Part shown: positions 9,927 through 63,114 of the stretch, piece by piece
Numbering within the stretch: position 1 is the first letter of the stretch
Layout: every line of letters starts with the position of its first letter
Source: Haliotis cracherodii
Lineage: Eukaryota
DNA: 64,000 nt
Reading direction: 5' to 3'
NCBI RefSeq assembly: GCF_022045235.1
Contig: NW_027266286.1
Span: forward strand, 70,866,001 to 70,930,000
Position numbers and translations under genes: made by a program
The notes under the pieces: model-generated
Databases searched by the model: none
The model's input: the letters and a program-made list of their open reading frames with translations, nothing else
What the model was told of the DNA's origin: nothing

Positions 9927-12900
9927 CTATTGCATCCCAAGTAGATCGTCCCTTTCTCGATAAAGACACTGAAGTTGCTTCTGGAGGACTTTTTTGATTG
10001 CCTGTAAAATTAGTAATAAAATATATTACATCAAGATAATTACCCAGTTTTAAATGTTCCACAAATGAAGAGAACATTTCTATATGAAGAGCAAAAGAAA
10101 CGCAAGTCTGACACTTTTTTCAAGTTTTTGAGTGAGTGAGTGAGTATGGTTTTACGCCGCTTTTAGCAATATTCCAGCAATATCACGGCGGGGGACACCA
10201 GAAATGGGCTTCACACATTGTACCCATGTCGGGTATTGATCCCGGGTCTTCGGCTTGATGAGCGAACGCTTTAACCGCTAGGCTACCCGACCGCCCCATT
10301 TAATTCACAATAGCTCTAAAGTAAACGGTTTTAAAGGAAAGGCTTTTAAGTTAGTATGTAGACGTTAGTTCTTATATCATTGTGTCAATGTTAAAGAAAG
10401 GAGACTTTGATAAATGTGCTTTAGATTCGGCTGTAAAAGAGTGAGTAGCTACACATATTTACTAGATTCAAGTGTGATAATCACCCCTTTGTTTCTTCTT
10501 GCACCCTGCTTCGTCAACTTATCAAGTTTTGCCTCTTTCTCTGTTATACTCATCATGATGATTTCAAGGCTCTTTGGAACCAGTGGAGGAACACGTGTGG
10601 TTGGACCCCAATCTCTGCTTCCACTGGCTGAAGGCTGAGTATTTGGACATTCCTTGATTTCCTCATCAGTAACATCATATGCCTTTGGACCAGACCAGCC
10701 AAACCCCAAGACAAAGTATACATTCTTTTGCCATAACGACCGTTTTCGAATAGGTAGTGATGTGGGGATCGCTACAATGAACATATTCCCTCCTACCGAT
10801 TTCAATTGCATGTTGATTTCCAGTCCCTCATTTAGGAGAACACCTTTCATTCGCTTCAGTCTATGCAAAGCTGTTGCTGTGCGCCAGACTCCATCTCCTA
10901 TGTCTCCTTTTCCTTCATTTCTGCCATTTAGTTGCTCATAGTAAACTATACTCTCCATGTCTTGGCCTTTTCCAAGGAAGAAATAGGTTGCATCTTTTTT
11001 CCTGAAATGGCGGTTTCCATCTTTTTGTCTTGGGTGATTCTTGTAAAATGCTTCTTTCCATTGGCTGATTGCCTCCAAAAGTCTTGAAGATGAGCACAGG
11101 TTATACATGTGACGATCCTCCGTTGGCAAATGAAAAAGAACAAGATACAGAAAAGTCTCAAGGTGAGGCCGTGTTCCCTGTTGAATTTTACATTCATAAA
11201 GACTTTTGCTCCATTCTATCATCTGTTGGAAGCTTGCAAGTGTTTGTTCCTTATCTGCCACCCCATTGTATGCAATACATGTGTTCAAAATGGTCACAAA
11301 ATCAAAAGCATTAGCTTGAGGTGATTTCACATTTTCAACCATTAACTTGAAAGCGCTGCAAAGCTTCATTCCACCTGTTGCCATGATCCGGAGAGCACTG
11401 GGTAGTGATGCAACCCCTAGCCTACTGGCGCGCCTTCTGCGAAATGCCATGGCATCTTCATTATTCATGCTATGGGGAACTCTATCAGTTCCTTCTCCAA
11501 AGAAACCATCAATATTTTCTTTGAAGCTGATAAGGAGCTCATTGTTTAGGTGTGAATCCTTTGGCATAATGTCGGCAGATGTCACACTTTTAAGCTGGTG
11601 AAATTCCTCATCAAGTCTTCGAAGAGCTTTTGTTGCATCATCTTGCATCTGTTTCAAATGCTCAATATCTGCTTCACCAACAAACTGAAACGTGTCGGGA
11701 ACAAACTTTGCATTGACCAAGAATTTATGCATATCCTCCTTCCCTGTGTAACACTGAAACTTAGGGAAAGTACTCAGCAACAGTATGATGACCCTGATCT
11801 CTCCACAGTATCCTGCATTGTTGATAGCAGTAGTTTCATTTTCACTGAGCTGTTGCTCTTTTCTGAATGTCTCTATAGCTTTGAAGGCAATGCCAATTAT
11901 ACGTTTAGCATCATCCCCATTGATTTTGTTGGTATCTGTTTCTGAGTGTTGAACATATTCATCAAACAGCTGCTCCTTGTAAACCATTGCTAAAGTATCC
12001 CAGAGGTAGGAATTTCGGTACCACTTGTTTGTAGCAATCTTAGCAAAGCGTTCAGCTTCTGTCCAGTTTTTGCAATGGATGTAAAATCTAGCAATCTGTT
12101 GAGCAATGATTGCATCATCAGACATCTCAAATACCTTGATCATGAGGTTTACAGTTCCATCAATATCAACATCGTCAATGGCTGCCAAAACAAATGGTGA
12201 AAACCTTTCTTTTCTATCATCTTTTGAGCGACATCTTTTCTTGATGATGTTTCTGATAATGTACAGTAAACGTTCAGTATATGCAGAATCAACGAGAAAC
12301 ACATTAGAATCGAGTAGCTGGTTCATTATGTCAACAATAGTTTCTCCTAGCTTTTCCATAAGTTTCAAAAGAATTGCTTTAGCAAGGAGGCTATGTATGA
12401 TGCGCAATGTCTGTTCTTTTGTCCCTTGACCAGCTGATCGTGATGATTTATTTAGGAGCACCCTCAATGGTGAACTTAAGCATGTCTCCCAACCTTTTTT
12501 CCTTGAATAGGTGCGTTGATTTCCTGTACTGATGATCATGCCGCACCTCTGTGGTGTTTGCATGAGTGGATCAAAGCAGGCCACGGGAACCGGAATGAAG
12601 TCAACATCATATGCATTTATGAGAGCAAGGTATTTTAGGACCCTTTGCTCTTTTTCATCTTTGATGTTATTGACGAGTGTACCAACTGTTCTGTGAATAT
12701 ATTCACTGTTGAAGTTTTCCTTCAGGATGTTAAAGGATATCAAGAGTTTGGGATCGACTTTTTTGTCATCTTTGAACCTCTTTTCTAGATCAGCATTTTT
12801 CATTTCAAACCAGGCAAGCTCCTTTGTGGTCAGTTCATGCTTGAGTAGTACTTTCCGGCTGTCACACTGGATTGGCAAATCAGCTCTTCGCTGGCAAACA

Positions 12901-15900
12901 AGAAGGACACAGAAAACAGATAGAATGCCATCCGATGATCTTGCTGCGATACGAGCTTTATCCTCCAGGACAGCATAGAGAAGGCATAATTTTTCATCAT
13001 CATGGTTGTCAATCAAAACCAGTGGGGGATTGGGACTATCAAGATCCTCATAGCATCTCAGAGTAGCTATTTGTTCAGGTGTCTGGTCATTTATTTGCTT
13101 AACTTCACAGCATCTGTACTTGTCCTTCAGATCCCACAGTATCTGGCGAGCTGATGTGGTACCTCCTGCCCCTGGTTGGTGTAACAGTGTCACCACTGTT
13201 ACTTTATTGTCAGTTTCTTTAGTAGTAGTAAGGGCGTCTGTTATTTGATTCATCAGACTTTCATGACAAGCTCTTTTAAGAACGTGATCTCCAGGAAACC
13301 AAAAATTCCACCAGTCTACTTCACCTCCCCTGAAGAAAATCTCCTCTACCTCACGTCTTTTAGCTTCTTTCTTCTTGGTATCATTCACAATTTCACTGTC
13401 GCTACACTGTTGTATGCTGAGAATGTCCAAATCGCACATATCCTCCTTCACTCTTTGCCGCAGAGAGCAATGCATACCCTTTGATGTTGGTAAAAGGCAT
13501 GCAGATGGTTGTCTCAAATTTGTGACTTGACAAATGGCATCGTTAAGATGATTCCAAGGAATGCCAACAACACATCTCTCATTGAGTGATCCTGTATCAG
13601 CACAGTGACGTGCAATCATCTGTTCTTTCCAAAGATCAGCAATAGCGTCATTTTCAGCCAGTATTATCCACTGTTCTTGGAATTTAGTAAATATCTCATC
13701 TGCTGCCTCCAACATAACTTCATAATTCGATGAGAAAAGAAATACTAACACCAGTGCTCTTCCTTGGGGTATGCTATTATGATAAAATTGTATGGCCCCC
13801 CGAAATCCTTCAATGCGCTTTTGTTTCCACTCAAAGGGGCCAAAGGCATGCTTTCCCAGACATTCATAGCCATTACAAAATGTCCATGTGTTCAAGGAAG
13901 ATGTTTGAAGATTCTCTAAAAATGCAGCATGCTTTTCTTTCTCAAGATTTTCTCCTCCGTTCTTATCAAAGTTGTCTGTTGTTAAGACCTGCATGACTCT
14001 CTCTTTGTTCATCACATAATGATAAAGGCCTTTAGTGTCACTTTCGGGATCAAAGTCAAAGATTGCTGTTGCATCTATATCTTTAACAAATGATAGATTT
14101 TCTTCTATGAAATTTGCTTCCATTTTGTCACCAAGAGGACTAAAAAACAACACAGGATAAACGTCATCTTCAAGTGTTTCTGCGCCACCAGTAAACAAAT
14201 TGAGAAATTTTCTTCTCAGGTTTTGGGCAGGTCCAGGCGCCTGTGTCTTCGCTTCTTGGGTTTGACGTAAAGTTGTTAAATCCATTACAGTTTTAGATGT
14301 GAAGTGTACAAGATCTCTTCCATCATGCCTTTTTATTGTGCCATCTGTATATCGAAACAGTCTCTGTTTATTCTTCTTGCCAATGGGGAATTTTGAACTG
14401 ATTAGAAACACTTCATGTTTTACAACATGACTTGTTGGAACAACATCTATTTCTACAACATAGCTGTGGTCGTCACTGTTATTCCTGTCAATGACCTCTA
14501 CAAATGTTGGATCTCGTATTACTTTAGACACAATCTCATGATGCTTTTCTTCGAAGGCAAATTTTATTTTGCTCATGATTTCACTCCGACATTTTTCTCT
14601 GTCAAGAGTGTATCCAGCAACTTCTCCCGGCAGTACTTCAAGAGAGCCCTCTGGGCATATACCAAAGTAAATTGTGCCATTTATCCTGTCATTCATACAT
14701 GCTGCAGCAAATGCAACTGTCTCATCTGCCATTTGCTGAATCATGACTGTAGGCTTTTGAATGTTAGCAAAATATTTGACCGGCTGCACCATGTTACCAC
14801 TGCAGAATTCAGTGTTCACAACTCTTCCTTTCACATATTTGACCCATGGTTCTACTGGATGGTCAAACTTCCTTAATGTCTCTTGGTATGGGCATTCTCT
14901 CGGCTTGCAAGTGCTATCTGGTGACTCAATGACACTTTGTTCAGTGTTCGCGTTTTCCGTATCATGAGGTTGCGATTTAATGTTTGAAATGAGTAATGAC
15001 AAGGCCCGCTTATGTCCAAATTTCAAGGAAGGGAAAAGTTCATTTATGTCTGTCTCCTTTAGTGAGAGGAACACTTCTCCGGTGATGCACTCGTCTTTGC
15101 ATTTTGCTATGACGTCTTCCTTCTTGCCAACTGTAGGATGATTGTTGAGGAAATCACATAGACCATCAACTTGCATCAGTTTGACATTTTCTTTGGTCGG
15201 TGTTGATAAGAGGCGAGGTTCTAAAATATCGAAGATTTGTTCGTAAGAATGCTTTCAATACAGTTAATTATTTATTATTAATGGCGAAAGAGGGATTTAT
15301 GATTACAAACACACATGCACATAATCACACACAGAGTAGACTCTCATCAGGTGGCAATTAGATGGACGGAGCCATCTTATAACTTACTTCTAGTTTACAC
15401 AGTTTACTTGTTAATGTGTTTCTTTCACTGTAAGAAATGACAATTCAAGACGTCAAATATCAATCAGTGACATTAGGGTACATGTATTGTCTCTCACGTG
15501 TTTTGAAGTTTTTATTTGAATATTTACGTACTTGTAGGTGTCTGTGAAGGTCTTATTTGTAAATTTCTCAAATAGGGTCTTGGTAGGGTCAAGGAAAGAT
15601 AACGAAAGACATAATGAAAAAACATAATGTAGAGCTGAGATGAACATCTATTTCTGATCTATTTGGAAAATTAACAAAATATTTTTGAAACAGCTTGTAA
15701 ATTACATGACTTTACAATTCAAAGGATACATTTCCCTTTTTGAACGCTGTTGCCAAGTTGTGTCAGTGAACACTTGTGTGATGAGATCTCTGAGCTGTTT
15801 GTCACCCCAGTCATAGTTCACCCCTGCCGACGTCACACATTCCTTGATGACCGCTTTAACATCCGGCAGGGGACACGTCGAGCCTTTTCTGTTGATAAAT

Positions 15901-18900
15901 CTATCAAGCAGGGCACCTCTGACGACATCTTCTGTTTGTGGTTGATCAGCTATGACGAAGAAATAAAAGATTGTGGCAAGTTAAATAACAATAGAATTGC
16001 TCCCTGTTTTAACAGCTCATTGTTGTATATGGCTTACGTGATAGTGAGTGAGTTAATTTGGTTTACCGCCGCTTTGAACATTATTTCGGTTAATATATGC
16101 ACACCTACAAGGGTATGGTGCTAACAAACCTAGAATCACAATCAAGGAGAACCGGGATTCGAACCAACGGGCATAGGTTTCTAGCACGCCTAAGGGACGT
16201 CATTCTGCACAATATGTAACAATCGGCGACAGACTGACATTTCTGGTTTGCACACTGACAGAGGATACGGAGAACCTTCTCGGTTGATGACTCTATCAAC
16301 CAGAGTTTCTCTGACGACATATTATGCTTGTGGTTGATCACCTATGACCACGTAATAGTTGTAAACGTCAAAGACCTACTTTATTTCTTGCTGTCCTCAT
16401 CAAGCTGACATGTTTCAGAAATGGTGTTTGATTGTAACATTTTTTTCCAACAGAATGTTCCTTTATGTTAATGGGACCATTTTGAATTTGTATGTATTCT
16501 ACGTGAAGTGTGAATTTACATGAAAATGTCACGAGGAAGGAATTCTTTGCAATATCCAGGTGCAAGTTAGGGGAATCGTGAGCAGCGATACTGTCCATTT
16601 TAAAACCGCATTACATTCAAACGTTTATTAACCAATATTTGTTCCTTGGATCAAAAACGTCATGCCACGACTCGCAACGTTGCCATTGGAGGCCTGGAGG
16701 CTGGGGAGTCTGAATCTGCTGTTGCACTTCATCTCCATGTTCACCAAGCACCATTTCTCGTGTTTGGGATTGATATCAGCAACACATTTCCACGCAAGAT
16801 CGGCCCCGCAAACCCACGGCCATTCTGGAAACCAGATCCTGACCCATAGAACATTTGTTGGTCATCGATAGACAGGTACGCCTACGACAACCGCCTCCCT
16901 GGATGCTTCAGCAACTGCTACACATATTGCTGGACAATTTGGCTATGTCTCCACAAGCTTGGAAGAAACGATTTCTTCAATGCAGAGCAGTTTTGGAGGC
17001 ACATGTTGGTTGAAATATACTGAACCAAATTAAAAACTTCACAATCCTAACATTTTAACATTTTGACCAGTTATCATTGTGGGCCCTTATTGTGTATTAA
17101 AACAGTAATGGCCACGTATTGTCTTCAGATAACACCTGTTTTTGTGCAGGTGAATCGATCAAAATCATGTGCACAGCACTATAGTGGCAAAAGTGTTTTT
17201 TCACGTGCAACTGGTCACGTGGCCATAATACCGCACGTGTTTTCAGCCATACTTGTTAGCAGTCATTAACAAAAAAAGAAAAACACAAGAAAACAAAAGT
17301 CTTTACGGCCATTTGTTATGCCACGCCTTTCAAATGTGCAACGTGAACGTGCCATCGGCATGTTGCAGACGGGAATGTCCGTAGCTGAAGTCGCAAAGAC
17401 GATGGGTTGTATTCGACCGACTGTTTATGATAAACAGACGCATCTACAGCAAACGGGTACCACCGCTGATCGCCCTCGGCCAGGTCGACCACGTGTGACG
17501 TCACATGCAGAGGATCGTCAGATTGTCTTACGTCACCTCCGTAACCGATTTTTGACGGCTACATCAACCAGATTTGCTGATGGTAGGGCGAGGGTGTGGA
17601 GGCGCCGTCATGAACGTTACTCCCAGTGTTGTGTACAGGAAGTTGATAGATTTCGAGGCAGAAGTGTCATGGTGTGGGGTCCTTTCTGTGGCAATGCACA
17701 TTCCAGGCTTCTTGTCATCCGTGGCAACCTCAACGCTGCTGCTTACCGTGACCAGGTACTGGCAACAGAACTTCTGCCTTTTATGGCAGCACATGGACCC
17801 GGTTTGATCTTCCAACACGACAATGCCAGACCCCACACAGCAATTTTGACAAGGAATTTCCTTCCGAATGCGGGAGTCAACGTCATGGACTGACCGTCAA
17901 GGTCTCCCGACCTCAATCCCATCGAACACGTCTGGGATGCTCTTGGCAGAAGTCTGCGCACTCTCCAGAACCAACCACAGAATTTGCAAGATCTTGGCAC
18001 CATTTTGCAGCAACAATGGCGTCGTCTTCCCAATCATGTGTTCACAAGCATGACAAGGGCTATGCGGAGGCGTTGTGTGGCAGTTGTCAACGCACATGGT
18101 GGCCATACACGCCACTGAACTTGTGTGCCATCAGATTCTGGTGCTTGGGATTTATAATGTTGATGTTATTACCGAATACAGTGGGTGCTTGGAACAAATT
18201 ATGGTTACCATCGTTAATTAAAATCCTTCTTTGGACATTAATGATTAAAAATTACCTTCTCTGATTCATTTGTCCGTTTTATATCATATATGGGATTACT
18301 TTTAAAAATGTGAAGTTTTTAATTTGACTCAGTATAGTTACTGAGAACACACGCCCACTTGTCAAATGACATCAATACTGACTAAATTTGTATTCCGACT
18401 TTCTTGTTGTATATGTACTATGGCTGCAAATGATATTGTATTAAAGTGGTTTCAGGTGAACAATGTAATTACCATTGCATGTCTCTTTTACGGGTGCCAC
18501 CGGTGGGGCAGAGATGTCCTATGAATATGGAAAGGGTTTTGTCGCTTTTATTTACCTTGAACACAACATCTAAAAATATGGGAAAATTCACCTATGGGTT
18601 TCTATTGTGGGAGAGCATATAACCGGGAGTATAACTAAACTCATTCTTTTAATTTGATTAAAATCACAACCCATTTTACAAGTTCAAACCTGTGCAAGTA
18701 ACAATACAGCAATGTGCTGTCATATACCGCTTCAACTGACCAATGAACATTGAGAATCGATAAATTAACACATGCCANNNNNNNNNNNNNNNNNNNNNNN
18801 NNNNNNNNNNNNNNNNNNNNNNNNNNNNNNNNNNNNNNNNNNNNNNNNNNNNNNNNNNNNNNNNNNNNNNNNNNNNNNNNNNNNNNNNNNNNNNNNNNNN

Positions 18901-20031
18901 NNNNNNNNCTATTTGTGACACTTGTGTTAGATATGACCTATACTTGGTTATTGTAGGGACGTTGCCCTATAATCTGCCAGCTGCCGTAAGTTAATATGTC
19001 ACGCTCGTGTGTGTACATGTTTCAAGCTATCCTTTGTAGCATTTGGCTACGCACTGCTCTCTTAACACTAGAAAACAGTTGCACGCATACATACAATAGT
19101 GATCACGCGCACCATGACAACACAACACAACCCGTTCAAACATGAGCAGGTAACACAACACCATGTGCTGCCGAATTTCTTCCGTTAAGGGCGTATGTAA
19201 TTACTCATATAGTTTCCTTTTCGTACTTATGCACTGTCATTTCGAGTGCCTCGGGTTCGCCGTTGTTATAGTTGAGACGGGTGCCTTAAGTTTGTCTGCT
19301 GGTATGAAATATGGGACTTTAACAGCCCAGTATCGTCGGCCCTAAAGACGTATTGCATTAAATGTCAACCTATCGTCGAGCCTAAACGGTTCTGCAGAAT
19401 GTCGTCCCTGAGGCGTGTCAGAAACCTATGATCGTTGTTTCGAATCCCTGTTCGCTCTGTTCATTACACCTCCGCGGCTAGGTCATAGAGCGTCTGCCCA
19501 GAGAGCGGAAGGTCGGGGGTTGTCTACCTGCCTAAGGCTCGCTCGGCATTCATTGGATAAAACATGGACTAGTACACACACGACTTTCCACATTGAGCTC
19601 AAATGTGGTATAACTGAAAATACTGAATTAATGTATAAAGCGACGTTACATCAAACCCAGTCATTCACTTTAAAGATGCTCATGTGTTTATCACCTAGCT
19701 GAAGTTTATCTCCAAAGGACTTACCTTCTAAACAGGCATCTTCATCGGGAGTAGCTGCAAGTTTCTCCTCTATGTGCGGCTGGATTTCTCTTACAATGTC
19801 ACAGAAACGTTTATACGCGTTCAGATTTTGTGGTTTTCGTTTCAGCGTGAACAGTAGTCTTTCAACCTTTTCAGGTTCAGGAGAAATACTTTTGATTAGT
19901 TTATACTCGCTGTCGTTCAGTGTGCCATTTTGGAACAGGCCGTTAAGGATGTCACCGCCATCTTCCAACTGAAGCTCACTTTTAAGATAGACCCAATTCT
20001 TCATTATCCTGCGCCATTCCTTGGAATCCAT
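9927..20031 (-). CDS. SAMD9: CARD- and winged-helix-fused SAMD9/SAMD9L-like STAND NTPase (spliced model, ~1794 aa)
   Basis: Predicted coding exons (minus): 20031-19725 (CARD, donor G|GTAAGT, phase 1), 15949-15730 (acceptor TCATAG, donor AT|GTATCCTTT, phase 2), 15578-15532 (donor A|GTACGT, phase 1), 15220-10485 (acceptor TTTTAG), 10001-9927 (acceptor TTACAG; tentative). All junctions keep frame with no stops; total 5385 nt. Confidence 0.75.
10130..10297 (-). mobile_element. SINE family 1 (in the putative last intron of the SAMD9-like gene)
   Basis: Full-length reverse copy. Confidence 0.9.
10449..15220 (-). CDS. SAMD9: Main exon of SAMD9-like protein: SAM, AlbA_2/Schlafen-like, Sir2-like, STAND P-loop NTPase, TPR/helical, OB-fold
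   Basis: 1575-aa ORF. SAM-like N-terminus (ITGEVFLSLKETDINELFPSLKFGHKR), FAAACMNDRINGTIYFGI (SAMD9 AlbA_2 signature), IFDFDPES, FFRGGEVDWWNF, Walker A HQPGAGGTT, Walker B PPLVLIDN, C-terminal VYFVLGFGWSGPKAYDV. One giant coding exon is typical of the family. Confidence 0.93.
15532..15949 (-). CDS. Two small exons (15949-15730, 15578-15532) encoding a putative RFX-like winged-helix domain
   Basis: Spliced translation ADQPQTEDVVRGALLDRFINRKGSTCPLPDVKAVIKECVTSAGVNYDWGDKQLRDLITQVFTDTTWQQRSKREIPYLRNLQIRPSQTPT; open frame, phases compatible with the flanking exons. Not in the ORF track. Domain identity is by eye. Confidence 0.7.
15579..15729 (-). other. U12-type (minor spliceosome) GT-AG intron, 151 nt
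   Basis: 5' site GTATCCTTT at 15729-15721; branch site TTTCCTTGAC at 15597-15588 with the branch A 10 nt from the 3' AG (15580-15579); no polypyrimidine tract. Confidence 0.85.
16225..16345 (-). pseudogene. Degenerate duplicate (pseudo-exon) of the 5' part of exon 15949-15730
   Basis: TCATAG|GTGATCAACCACAAGCATAATATGTCGTCAGAGAAACTCTGGTTGATAGA aligns with TCATAG|CTGATCAACCACAAACAGAAGATGTCGTCAGAGGTGCCCTGCTTGATAGA; the GAA codon has become TAA. Confidence 0.75.
16600..17015 (+). mobile_element. Older, highly degenerate Tc1-like remnant
   Basis: ATGCCACGACTC...GCCATTGGAGGCCTGGAGGCTGGGG (MPRL..AIG.LEAG) and a decayed PD..PIEH motif (CCAGATCCTGACCCATAGAACAT). Confidence 0.55.
17018..18334 (+). mobile_element. 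Tc1/mariner (DD34E Tc1-type) transposon, defective
   Basis: 26-bp TIRs TACTGAACCAAATTAAAAACTTCACA / TGTGAAGTTTTTAATTTGACTCAGTA with TA flanks. Transposase 17318-18118: HTH N-terminus, GRPR, FQHDNARPH, (W>stop)PSRSPDLNPIEHVW, GGHTRH; an internal deletion removes the first catalytic Asp region. Confidence 0.92.
18778..18908. other. Assembly gap (131 N) inside the CARD-to-winged-helix intron
   Basis: Run of N. Confidence 1.
19725..20031 (-). CDS. CARD (death-fold) exon, first coding exon of the SAMD9-like gene
   Basis: MDSKEWRRIMKNWVYLKSELQLEDGGDILNGLFQNGTLNDSEYKLIKSISPEPEKVERLLFTLKRKPQNLNAYKRFCDIVREIQPHIEEKL fits the CARD six-helix pattern. Acceptor TTTCAG 4 nt before the ATG; strong donor GTAAGT at 19724. 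Confidence 0.8.
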
Positions 20032-20710
20032 ATTCCTGAAATATGACCTCGATCAGTTATTCATGTAAACTAATGACATGGTAGGGTGGACGATCCAGTT
20101 CTTGATTACTATTGTAGCAATGTTTCCGTTTACTTTATAACATCGTTATGAAGCAACTGAAAATTTGAGGTTAGTGTCCAAAAGAAGTTCAAATTATCTA
20201 ATGTTATGTGGTAGTATACATTGTAATTCAGTTATAATGATTGTTACTGTTGTGGCTAGGTTTTGTTGTCCACGGCTCGTAATTTAGAGTTACCTTCTAA
20301 ATGCCATCCAATGATCTTGTTAATCATTCTGTTTAAACTTTCAGGATCGAGACATCGTGTGATTCCAGATACAGATATAAAACATATGTAACCGATATTT
20401 CTTAAATTATATATTTTCACCGTTCTCGCCCATGAGGTTTTCAAAGCATATAGCGACGACTCGATTTACATTTTACATCATACCACAAAACAAACTGGAA
20501 TTCACAAACGGAATAGTCTCTTATCAAAATGTACTATCACCTTTTGAATTCGGCCTATCGTCTGCTTAAGGTCTAATTTGCATGATTTGCATCAAACATG
20601 AATTAAAACGATCTTTTCCGCATTTGCCTATTTTAATTATTTTTTTTAGCAAATGTAGTTGCGTGTTTATCACATCGATATATCTCGATAGTTCCTTATA
20701 GTCTTAACAT

Positions 20711-60722: not shown

Positions 60723-62067
60723 TTATATATATATATATATAATTCATATATAACTGAAATATAAATTATATATAACTGAAATACACCAATAGTCCTAAAT
60801 AGGTCCATTATATTGGTGCTGTCAAAATGACATTTTTCTTCTTTTCGTTATGACATAATCTGCACGAGAGCCATCGAAGTTGTGGTCGACAGTGTGACAA
60901 GTCCTTCACGTCGCATGCAGCTGAGCGAGAGTCTGCAAGTTCATGACTAGACCAAAACCATCCCCTTCCAAAAATTGTATCCATCAGATTCACAATTAAC
61001 TGTTTGATTGATTCTAGAAGTTGGCAAATAAATAAGAAAACCATACAACTTTATGGATAACAACTTTTGGTTTATTGCATATAGCGACGTTTCGATGTAG
61101 ATTCTTACACCGTTACCAAGCTGGAGTGACAACAACCAAGCGATGAAATTCACAATTGTGTGCATGAGGTTAACGTTGTTTCTGTAATGTAACAACGAAT
61201 TCGAATCACCTTAATATTGGAGGAAATCCCGAAAGTAGCTGAGTGATAACTGTGTACAGACAAGAGCACACATGAATTCATAAGCTGCTAACACTCTTCA
61301 CCGTGTAAGCTGTTTTTAATTTGGTGCTCCTGTGTGACTGATTAGGTTGTCAGTACCTAATGCTTGCAGTGCCTGCAGAGTAAAACAGGAAGTGAGAGGT
61401 CAGGACTGGTGACTTGGCTCAACGCTCCCGACAGTGTGGATCGTTGGTCATGCTTTCAATCACTGGTTGGCCAAGTCCAGTCTCGATTATAAACAGGCCG
61501 CACTGTATAGCTGAAATAATGCTGACTGATTCACGCACTCACATAATAAAACGAAGTAAGTGTATCTGAAAAGTAAGGCGAAGCTGACATGTTCACTGTA
61601 CGTAAAACAAGTATGGTTCTTAATATCTTTCTGCGAATTTGAAAAACTAAAGAATTGATAAGATGATATGGATCCCTTTAACACGTTCCTTCATGTCGTG
61701 AGTGAGCTGGGTTTAGATACAAACTTTTTCCATTGCACGATTCCAACTATATCATAAGCATGTGTTTATGAATCACAATCAAACAATGATGAACCCTAAA
61801 TTTACAGCAAAAACTTACTTCTTAAAAGTGATATTTTTAATGAAGAGTTCTGTGTTTGCTATATGTAAAGAATACACGGGACGCTATACATTCGAATAAA
61901 TTGCTTGTTTTGCGAGATACATTTTATCACGATTTTGACAGATACAGTACGCGATTTCCATTGAGGCTTATTTAAGCGATGTGTTACTCTAGGTCTTCCA
62001 GCCCTAAAGTGTCACCCACGGATTGTCGTTAAGTGAAACCCACGGCCAAAGGTATGATGTTGGCTAT

Positions 62068-63114
62068 CCAGTCTTAGATTCGAACCAACGACAACCGGTA
62101 ACTGAGCAAAAAATTGGCCAGTCTTAGATTCGAACCCATGACGACCGGTAACTGAGCAACAAAGTAGCCAGTCTTAGATTCGAACCCACGACGACCGGTA
62201 ACTGAGCAACAAAGTAGCCAGTCTTAGATTCGAACCCACGACGACCGGTAACTGAGCAACAAAGTAGCCAGTCTTAGATTCGAATCCACGACAACCGGTA
62301 ACTGAGCAACAAAGTGGCCAGTTTTAGATTCGAACCCACGACGACCGGTAACTGAGCAACACAGTAGCCAGTTTTAGATTCGAACCCATGACGACCGGTA
62401 ACTGAGCAACAAAGTAGCCAGTTTTAGATTCGAACCCACGACGACCGGTAACTGAGCAACAAAGTAGCCAGTTTTAGATTCGAACCCATGACGACCGGTA
62501 ACTGAGCAACAAAGTAGCCAGTCTTAGATTCGAACCCACGACGACCGGTAACTGAGCAACAAAGTAGCCAGTCTTAGATTCGAACCCACGACGACCGGTA
62601 ACTGAGCAACAAAGTAGCCAGTCTTAGATTCGAACCCATGACGACCGGTAACTGAGCAACAAAGTAGCCAGTCTTAGATTCGACCCCACGACGACCGATA
62701 ACTGAGCAACAAAGTAGCCAGTCTTAGATGCGAACCCACGACGACCGGTAACTGAGCAACAAAGTAGCCAGTCTTAGATGCGAACCCACGACGACCGGTA
62801 ACTGAGCAACAAAGTAGCCAGTCTTAGATGCGAACCCACGACGACCGGTAACTGAGCAACAAAGTAGCCAGTCTTAGATGCGAACCCACGACGACCGGTA
62901 ACTGAGCAACAAAGTAGCCAGTCTTAGATTCGAACCCACGACGACCGGTAACTGAGCAACAAAGTAGCCAGTCTTAGATTCGAACCCACGACGACCGGTA
63001 ACTGAGCAACAAAGTAGCCAGTCTTAGATTCGAACCCACGACGACCGGTAACTGAGCAACAAAGTAGCCAGTCTTAGATTCGACCCCACGACGACCGGTA
63101 ACTGAGCAACAAAG
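62068..63114. repeat. 50-bp tandem satellite, ~21 copies, each containing a Pol III B box
   Basis: Unit GTCTTAGATTCGAACCCACGACGACCGGTAACTGAGCAACAAAGTAGCCA; no unique spacers. Confidence 0.95.

Follow-up and report, generated by a model that had tools for sequence, protein, structure and literature searches.

A U12-type intron in an abalone SAMD9-like gene, probably inherited with a winged-helix domain from an RFX-family gene

A SAMD9-like gene of the abalone Haliotis cracherodii, encoded on the minus strand of the 64,000-nucleotide stretch of DNA analysed here (the window, to which all plain coordinates refer), contains at 15729-15579 a GT-AG intron of 151 nt and phase 2 that belongs to the U12 type and interrupts a predicted winged-helix domain, here called X. 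This intron is probably an inherited passenger, which would have come with the winged-helix domain when the latter was captured from an RFX-family gene by the ancestor of the invertebrate CARD-type SAMD9-like genes; RFX5/7 in particular is a less secure choice of donor than the RFX family as a whole. According to the accessible text of PMC10639083, minor introns account for about 0.5% of introns or fewer and are rarely created, with very little evidence for their creation de novo, and the presence of one in a fast-evolving immune gene therefore needs a source. Where that source can be named, it provides a concrete route for minor introns into new gene families, inside a shuffled domain, and the intron becomes a marker of homology where the signal in the protein sequence is lost.

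The host gene has the domain order CARD-X-SAM-AlbA-STAND (Table 1), in which X is missed by Pfam, and the NCBI protein P0001 (SAMD9-like, Haliotis cracherodii) has been built from identical exons. The CARD-X-SAM start is common to gastropod and bivalve homologs. While the SLFN_AlbA_2 and nSTAND Pfam matches in the large exon fall below the cut-off, 97 SAMD9-family homologs, vertebrate SAMD9 among them, were found with E values down to 1e-82, and the HQPGAGGTT Walker A region can be aligned with SAMD9. By this homology the SAMD9-family core is present, with putative TPR and OB parts. To our knowledge, the coding sequence of vertebrate SAMD9 is intronless.

Table 1. Exons, introns and splicing signals of the SAMD9-like gene in the window.
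Feature	Position	Strand	Evidence
CARD exon, ATG at 20031, phase-1 major donor at its end	19725..20035	minus	Pfam CARD, E 6.6e-7; junction to 15949 in three of four runs
Phase-1 major intron with DNA transposon and decayed partial copy of the next exon	15950..19724	minus	sequence, contigs
220-nt exon with most of the predicted RFX-like winged helix (three helices, strands 1-2, wing loop)	15730..15949	minus	AlphaFold2 (pLDDT 89.6); Foldseek, VIA
U12-type intron (GT-AG, phase 2, 151 nt) interrupting the wing of the predicted winged helix	15579..15729	minus	sequence, transcript contigs, simulation
U12 5' splice site GTATCCTTT	15721..15729	minus	motif scan
U12 branch site TTTCCTTGAC, branch A at 15589	15588..15597	minus	motif scan; complementary to the genome's U12 snRNA
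47-nt exon with the last predicted winged-helix strand (PYLRNLQIR) and linker, phase-1 major donor	15532..15578	minus	sequence, contigs
Major intron, phase 1, at the 3' end of the cassette; contigs of three of four runs retain it	15221..15531	minus	contigs
Single large exon (4.8 kb) with SAM, AlbA-like, SIR2-like, STAND NTPase and C-terminal part (SAMD9 core, by homology)	10449..15220	minus	1601-aa open frame; homologs

Several other features of the window were noted in and around this gene. The CARD-to-winged-helix intron harbours a Tc1/mariner-like DNA transposon (17013-18339) with 38-nt inverted ends and an HTH_29 match at 17270-17893, as well as a decayed partial copy of the winged-helix exon (16348-16235, minus strand), which comprises the acceptor and 5' part at about 80% identity over 90 nt and has an in-frame stop and a chance GTATCCTC, with no listed junction there. 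At the start of the large exon (15220-15215), contigs of all four runs have AACCAG in place of the assembly's AACCTC; this difference is present even in run X1, which elsewhere matches the assembly without a difference, and the AACCAG form creates a second AG six bases on. The mismatch is either an allele or an assembly error. A tandem segmental duplication of about 12 kb with 89-98% identity lies at 33500-57400, where none of the 13 open frames in or beside it matches Pfam, and minisatellites with periods of about 31 and 50 nt are found at 1781-2506 and 62065-63114.

The 5' splice site matches the U12 consensus RTATCCTT perfectly, and the branch A lies 10 nt off the end of the intron, whose 3' end reads TTTCCTTGACCCTACCAAG; the TTCCTTRAC element characteristic of U12 introns is thus present within 10-20 nt of the 3' end, with no long pyrimidine tract after it. 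Neither motif is rare by itself, the donor being found three times in 64 kb (1.5 expected) and the branch motif followed by AG once (0.53 expected), but a donor followed within 200 nt by branch site and acceptor occurred in none of 150 simulated windows, and within 2 kb in one of 150. A U12 snRNA search of the genome gave two matches above cut-off, and the GAGTAAGGAAA stretch of the genome's U12 snRNA is complementary to the branch site of the intron. Excision joins AT/A into an isoleucine codon and leaves the exons 15949-15730 and 15578-15532 in frame, as had been claimed, while its retention introduces a stop codon after nine codons.

Assembled contigs show the intron removed at exactly these sites. 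The exact junction 15578/15730 is present in contigs from four of four runs (four studies, four organism codes) and the upstream CARD-exon junction 19725/15949 in those from three, in transcript evidence that consists of contigs only, from runs whose RNA status was inferred, none being recorded as RNA. One non-canonical joint (14732/15739, TT..TT) occurs in run X8 only, and there are five further joints among the contigs. The original prediction of a U12-type intron at 15579..15729 has accordingly been confirmed, its motifs being perfect, its phase 2 and its splice sites exact in four of four transcript assemblies. The intron is an ordinary member of the U12 class, and it is likely that the minor spliceosome removes it.

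The domain interrupted by the intron is predicted to be a winged helix of the RFX/D5 type. An AlphaFold2 model of X made from 17 sequences has the three helices, short strands 1-2, wing hairpin and last strand pairing back that define this fold. When 350,542 PDB chains were searched with Foldseek, the top two matches were RFX5 (8zjr_M) and RFX1 (1dp7_P), with TM 0.70 and probability 1.00, and the rest reached at most 0.51; VIA likewise placed RFX5 first (Z 12.1, rmsd 2.2, 80 aligned), followed by RFX1 (Z 10.7) and the origin-binding domain of phage P4 (Z 8.6). An exon-only model from the metagenome locus L037 was poor (pLDDT 58) and gave generic winged-helix matches only, with RFX5 at rank 18. 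The next exon of an abalone ARID2-like winged helix was also looked for and not found.

What speaks against RFX ancestry is the absence of proof at the level of sequence: none of the 17 module sequences matches the RFX DNA-binding domain (PF02257), the RRLG.RG.SKY.Y.G signature of the RFX wing is not present, a PDB sequence search with the module returned no RFX, a Pfam search of the module returned no family, and hhalign of the module against the RFX5/7 profile is suggestive only (P 0.005 and 0.001, probability 7-21%). A search of 1.84 billion representatives with the module profile gave 32 matches, of which the named ones are all gastropod or bivalve, and none of the 26 new matches scanned is an RFX by Pfam. 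The wing varies in length and has at least four K/R residues in 10/17 modules and a net acidic charge in 4/17. Because the wing is basic in the former and acidic in the latter, and the RFX signature is missing, it seems unlikely that X reads X-boxes; our guess would be that the diverged winged helix is a putative non-specific nucleic-acid-binding or bait module. Two scallop proteins (P0017 and P0160) have two tandem winged-helix modules, P0160 being annotated as a CARD with two modules only, and a SAMD9-like model from Bulinus (P0173) carries a C-terminal AIG1 (GIMAP) GTPase domain, which may be an annotation fusion.

Further evidence is provided by the introns of the RFX genes themselves. A PF02257 search of the abalone genome gave 11 places, among which RFX5/7 (P0099, with PF02257 and RFX5_N) is interrupted at GQSK/YCYSGL (the slash marks the intron) by a phase-2 U12 intron of the AT-AC subtype, about 5.6 kb long, with donor ATATCCTTTG, branch site TCCTTAAC and an AC acceptor. 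Three abalone RFX4/6/8-type genes have a major intron in phase 2 at the same SK/Y site, and abalone RFX1/2/3 has no intron there, which leaves RFX5/7 as apparently the sole abalone RFX gene that still has a U12 intron at this position. RFX5 and RFX7 are also listed as minor-intron genes of human and zebrafish in the accessible part of a recent preprint (bioRxiv 10.64898/2026.08.20.745718). Reading through into YP is a signature of an unspliced U12 donor, and it is seen at the SK/Y site in 11 of 62 RFX5/7-like database proteins and at the end of 6/10 short read-through module ORFs. In all four abalone genes that have the module, its split codon (KREI/PYLRNL) precedes the (N/G)L anchor by six codons, the same spacing as in RFX. 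The expectation of a phase-2 U12 intron at the matching codon of an RFX-type winged helix is therefore supported by abalone RFX5/7 and by the structure matches.

The register of this site is less exact outside abalone. The pairing of chain ends by VIA (model 84 with 1dp7 76) sets Ile74 on Lys66, provided that no gap falls within the last ten residues, and hhalign shifts the intron site by one. The distance to the anchor is -7, -9 and -10 in the metagenome loci L046, L037 and L034, respectively, and roughly -5 and -7 in estimates from read-through ORFs; the phase is 2 in all four abalone genes and in these three loci. Because the register wobbles from -5 to -10 and hhalign moves it by one, 'same codon' as in RFX is exact only for abalone, and since the anchors of L034, L046 and L037 lie at -10, -7 and -9, indels appear to have built up around the wing there. 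The remaining introns of abalone RFX5/7 are in phases 2, 2 and 0, as opposed to the phase-1 borders of the module, and its internal intron has no counterpart in the abalone module, although L046 has an intron within the domain whose phase is uncertain. The viral D5 fit discussed below, the unshared flanking introns, the wobbling register and the differing subtypes (AT-AC versus GT-AG) all count against a simple reading of capture.

Part of this discrepancy would be accommodated by an older common ancestor, either a pre-duplication RFX or another, possibly lost, RFX-like winged-helix gene, that shared its intron with the module without any capture from RFX5/7 itself. The SK/Y site is common to RFX5/7 and the RFX4/6/8-type genes, subfamilies that predate animals according to the accessible text of PMC10530576, no further RFX5/7 intron is held in common with the module, and the subtype differs. 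This origin is nevertheless unlikely, as no solved structure matches better than RFX5, even if its lead over RFX1 is only 1.4 Z, and even here the intron is still inherited with the domain and only the name of the donor changes.

The fold of X is not enough to identify its donor, and the domain might instead derive from an intronless viral or mobile-element protein, as the C-terminal winged helix of a D5/primase, with a U12 intron gained independently in the wing loop. Winged helices of viral D5/primase proteins match the X model equally well (TM up to 0.79), Pox_D5 clusters are nearest to X in a language-model feature search (0.89 and 0.95), P0175, a virus-like protein of 345 aa with a tandem pair of winged helices, is among the 32 matches of the module profile, and the flanking introns of RFX are not in common with the module. 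Such an origin requires, however, that a minor intron, of a class that makes up so few introns and is so rarely created (PMC10639083), was gained de novo in the same phase and at the same wing position as that of RFX, and among solved structures RFX5 and RFX1 stand above P4. We consider this improbable, and descent of the domain and its intron from an RFX-family gene remains the preferred reading.

The distribution of the module bears on the age of the capture. Six SAMD9-like genes are present in the genome of this abalone, and four of them have the module, a phase 1-1 cassette. In each of these four the donor is GTATCCTT, the split codon lies at -6 and the branch site is U12-like, though weaker in two; the introns measure 151 nt and about 0.46, 1.3 and 9.4 kb. 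In one of these paralogs (L002), the U12 donor and exon end are repeated 106 nt inside the intron (1698 and 1804). A fifth gene, the C1 paralog, joins CARD straight to SAM in phase 1 with no module, and because it nests with mollusc proteins inside the module-bearing clade of the tree, loss of the cassette is the simpler reading. The CARD-SAM intron of the C1 paralog (L050) contains at 1352-1325 (minus strand) a perfect TCCTTAAC followed by AG, possibly a relic of a lost U12 acceptor. Upstream of the sixth homolog (C78:5.44 Mb), a weak match, about 18 kb of sequence revealed neither a CARD exon nor one for the winged helix.

More distant relatives were sought in metagenomes, where a first scan gave no match. 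Among 21 loci then obtained, 18 are SAMD9-like, and upstream exons were seen in four: L034 has CARD, module and a phase-2 U12 intron, L046 a partial module and a phase-2 U12 intron, L037 a module with a major intron in place of the U12 intron, and L038 a CARD without a recognisable module. Directly after the CARD exon of L038 there is a GTATCC donor (3519). Against the mollusc profile, the exons of L034, L046 and L037 beat 300, 297 and 299 of 300 shuffles, respectively. RTATCCTT was found upstream of the 18 SAMD9-like loci twice against 1.3 expected, which is not significant alone, and the case for U12 introns at the metagenome loci rests on their exon context. In the tree, L034, L046 and L037 branch outside the named mollusc proteins, with weak support at the deep nodes (0.34-0.40). 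The capture would thus be older than the split of gastropods and bivalves and probably older than molluscs.

Under descent from an RFX-family gene, the ancestor of the invertebrate CARD-type SAMD9-like genes would have captured the winged helix together with its U12 intron, so that domain and intron would share common descent with RFX. Because the introns of RFX5/7 lie in phases other than 1 and the internal one is absent from the module, this history would also call for the loss of the RFX internal intron, the gain of new phase-1 borders and a switch between AT-AC and GT-AG on one side. Some lineages would later have undergone U12-to-U2 conversion or loss of the cassette; the major introns of L037 and of the RFX4/6/8-type genes are read as such conversions, which follow the known direction (PMC7367187, accessible text). 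The proposal that a shuffled module brought the intron in from a donor gene is therefore supported as to the donor, whereas the event would have been ancient and family-wide rather than specific to this gene, and the flanking introns of RFX are not shared.

It had further been suggested that the intron may gate the expression of a toxic effector, being kept since slow minor splicing would limit the output of a harmful immune protein and retention would lead to a stop and likely decay, but this is unsupported and seems improbable, given that retention is not in excess (intron-retaining contigs in one of four runs for the U12 intron versus three of four for the next, major intron, in contigs that cannot measure rates), that the intron appears converted to U2 in L037 and the cassette is missing in the C1 paralog and L038, that minor introns are ordinarily conserved over long times (PMC10639083), and that most of the residues on which toxicity depends are missing. 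In human SAMD9, toxicity and tRNase activity have been reported to need E184, E196, E218 and D241 together with K198, K214 and R221 (accessible text of PMC10246899). The window protein has E, Y, E and P at the acidic columns and A, Q and A at the basic ones, with gaps near D241, so that two of four acidic residues (the E184 and E218 equivalents) and none of three basic ones are kept; across 34 invertebrate-clade proteins, D241 is kept in three and E196, as Glu, in none. Judged by its aligned residues, the window protein lacks the residue set of the SAMD9 tRNA anticodon nuclease. Most likely it works as a STAND-type sensor that signals via its CARD and not as a tRNA nuclease. Invertebrate SAMD9-like proteins would likewise signal through CARD rather than cut tRNA, and their architecture gains an RFX-like domain that had not been annotated.

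Compared with known systems, the intron most resembles that of RFX5/RFX7, which is also U12, in phase 2 and in the wing before the last strand of an RFX-fold domain; going by the (G/N)L anchor, the codon is the same in abalone. It differs in that abalone RFX5/7 has an AT-AC intron whereas the one described here is GT-AG, the SAMD9-like host is an immune-type STAND gene, domain identity is 8-17%, and the other RFX introns are unshared. The domain is alike in predicted fold to the RFX DNA-binding domain (PF02257; 1DP7, 8ZJR) and the D5/P4 origin-binding domains (PF03288; 1KA8), with the Z scores given above, and differs from the former in lacking the wing signature, in falling below every sequence threshold and in the variable length and charge of its wing. 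With the SAMD9/SAMD9L family, the gene has in common the SAM-AlbA-SIR2-STAND core in one large exon, and departs from it in the human tRNase residues that are largely missing. A CARD (DEATH-superfamily) N-terminus of invertebrate SAMD9s has already been reported (PMC5445408), while the accessible text of that literature (PMC5445408 including supplements, PMC10246899, PMC12680541, PMC13245274) makes no mention of an RFX-like winged helix between CARD and SAM. No report of domain X or its minor intron was found in the literature on RFX7, SAMD9, minor-intron gain and integrated domains, subscription papers and bioRxiv supplements lying outside the coverage. What seems to be new is the RFX-like domain in invertebrate SAMD9-like proteins, together with a minor intron that would have moved with a domain between unrelated gene families.

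Two wider parallels can be drawn. In class 1-1 module shuffling, a cassette is bounded by phase-1 introns, and the module is likewise phase-1-bounded and cleanly absent from one paralog, although its phase-1 borders are not those of the presumed donor. Plant NLRs carry integrated domains such as the WRKY domain in RRS1, in which the DNA-binding domain of a transcription factor is fused into a STAND immune receptor; the likeness is one of domain architecture only, and the present case is animal and strongly diverged from its donor. As a tentative extension, possible rather than probable, invertebrate SAMD9-like STAND receptors might use an integrated domain captured from an RFX5/7 gene, and traceable by its co-travelling minor intron, to sense nucleic acids or to bait pathogen factors that target RFX-like proteins. 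Such a domain would be an animal counterpart of those integrated in plant NLRs; it would predate the molluscs, and the vertebrate proteins, relying on a tRNase instead, would lack it.
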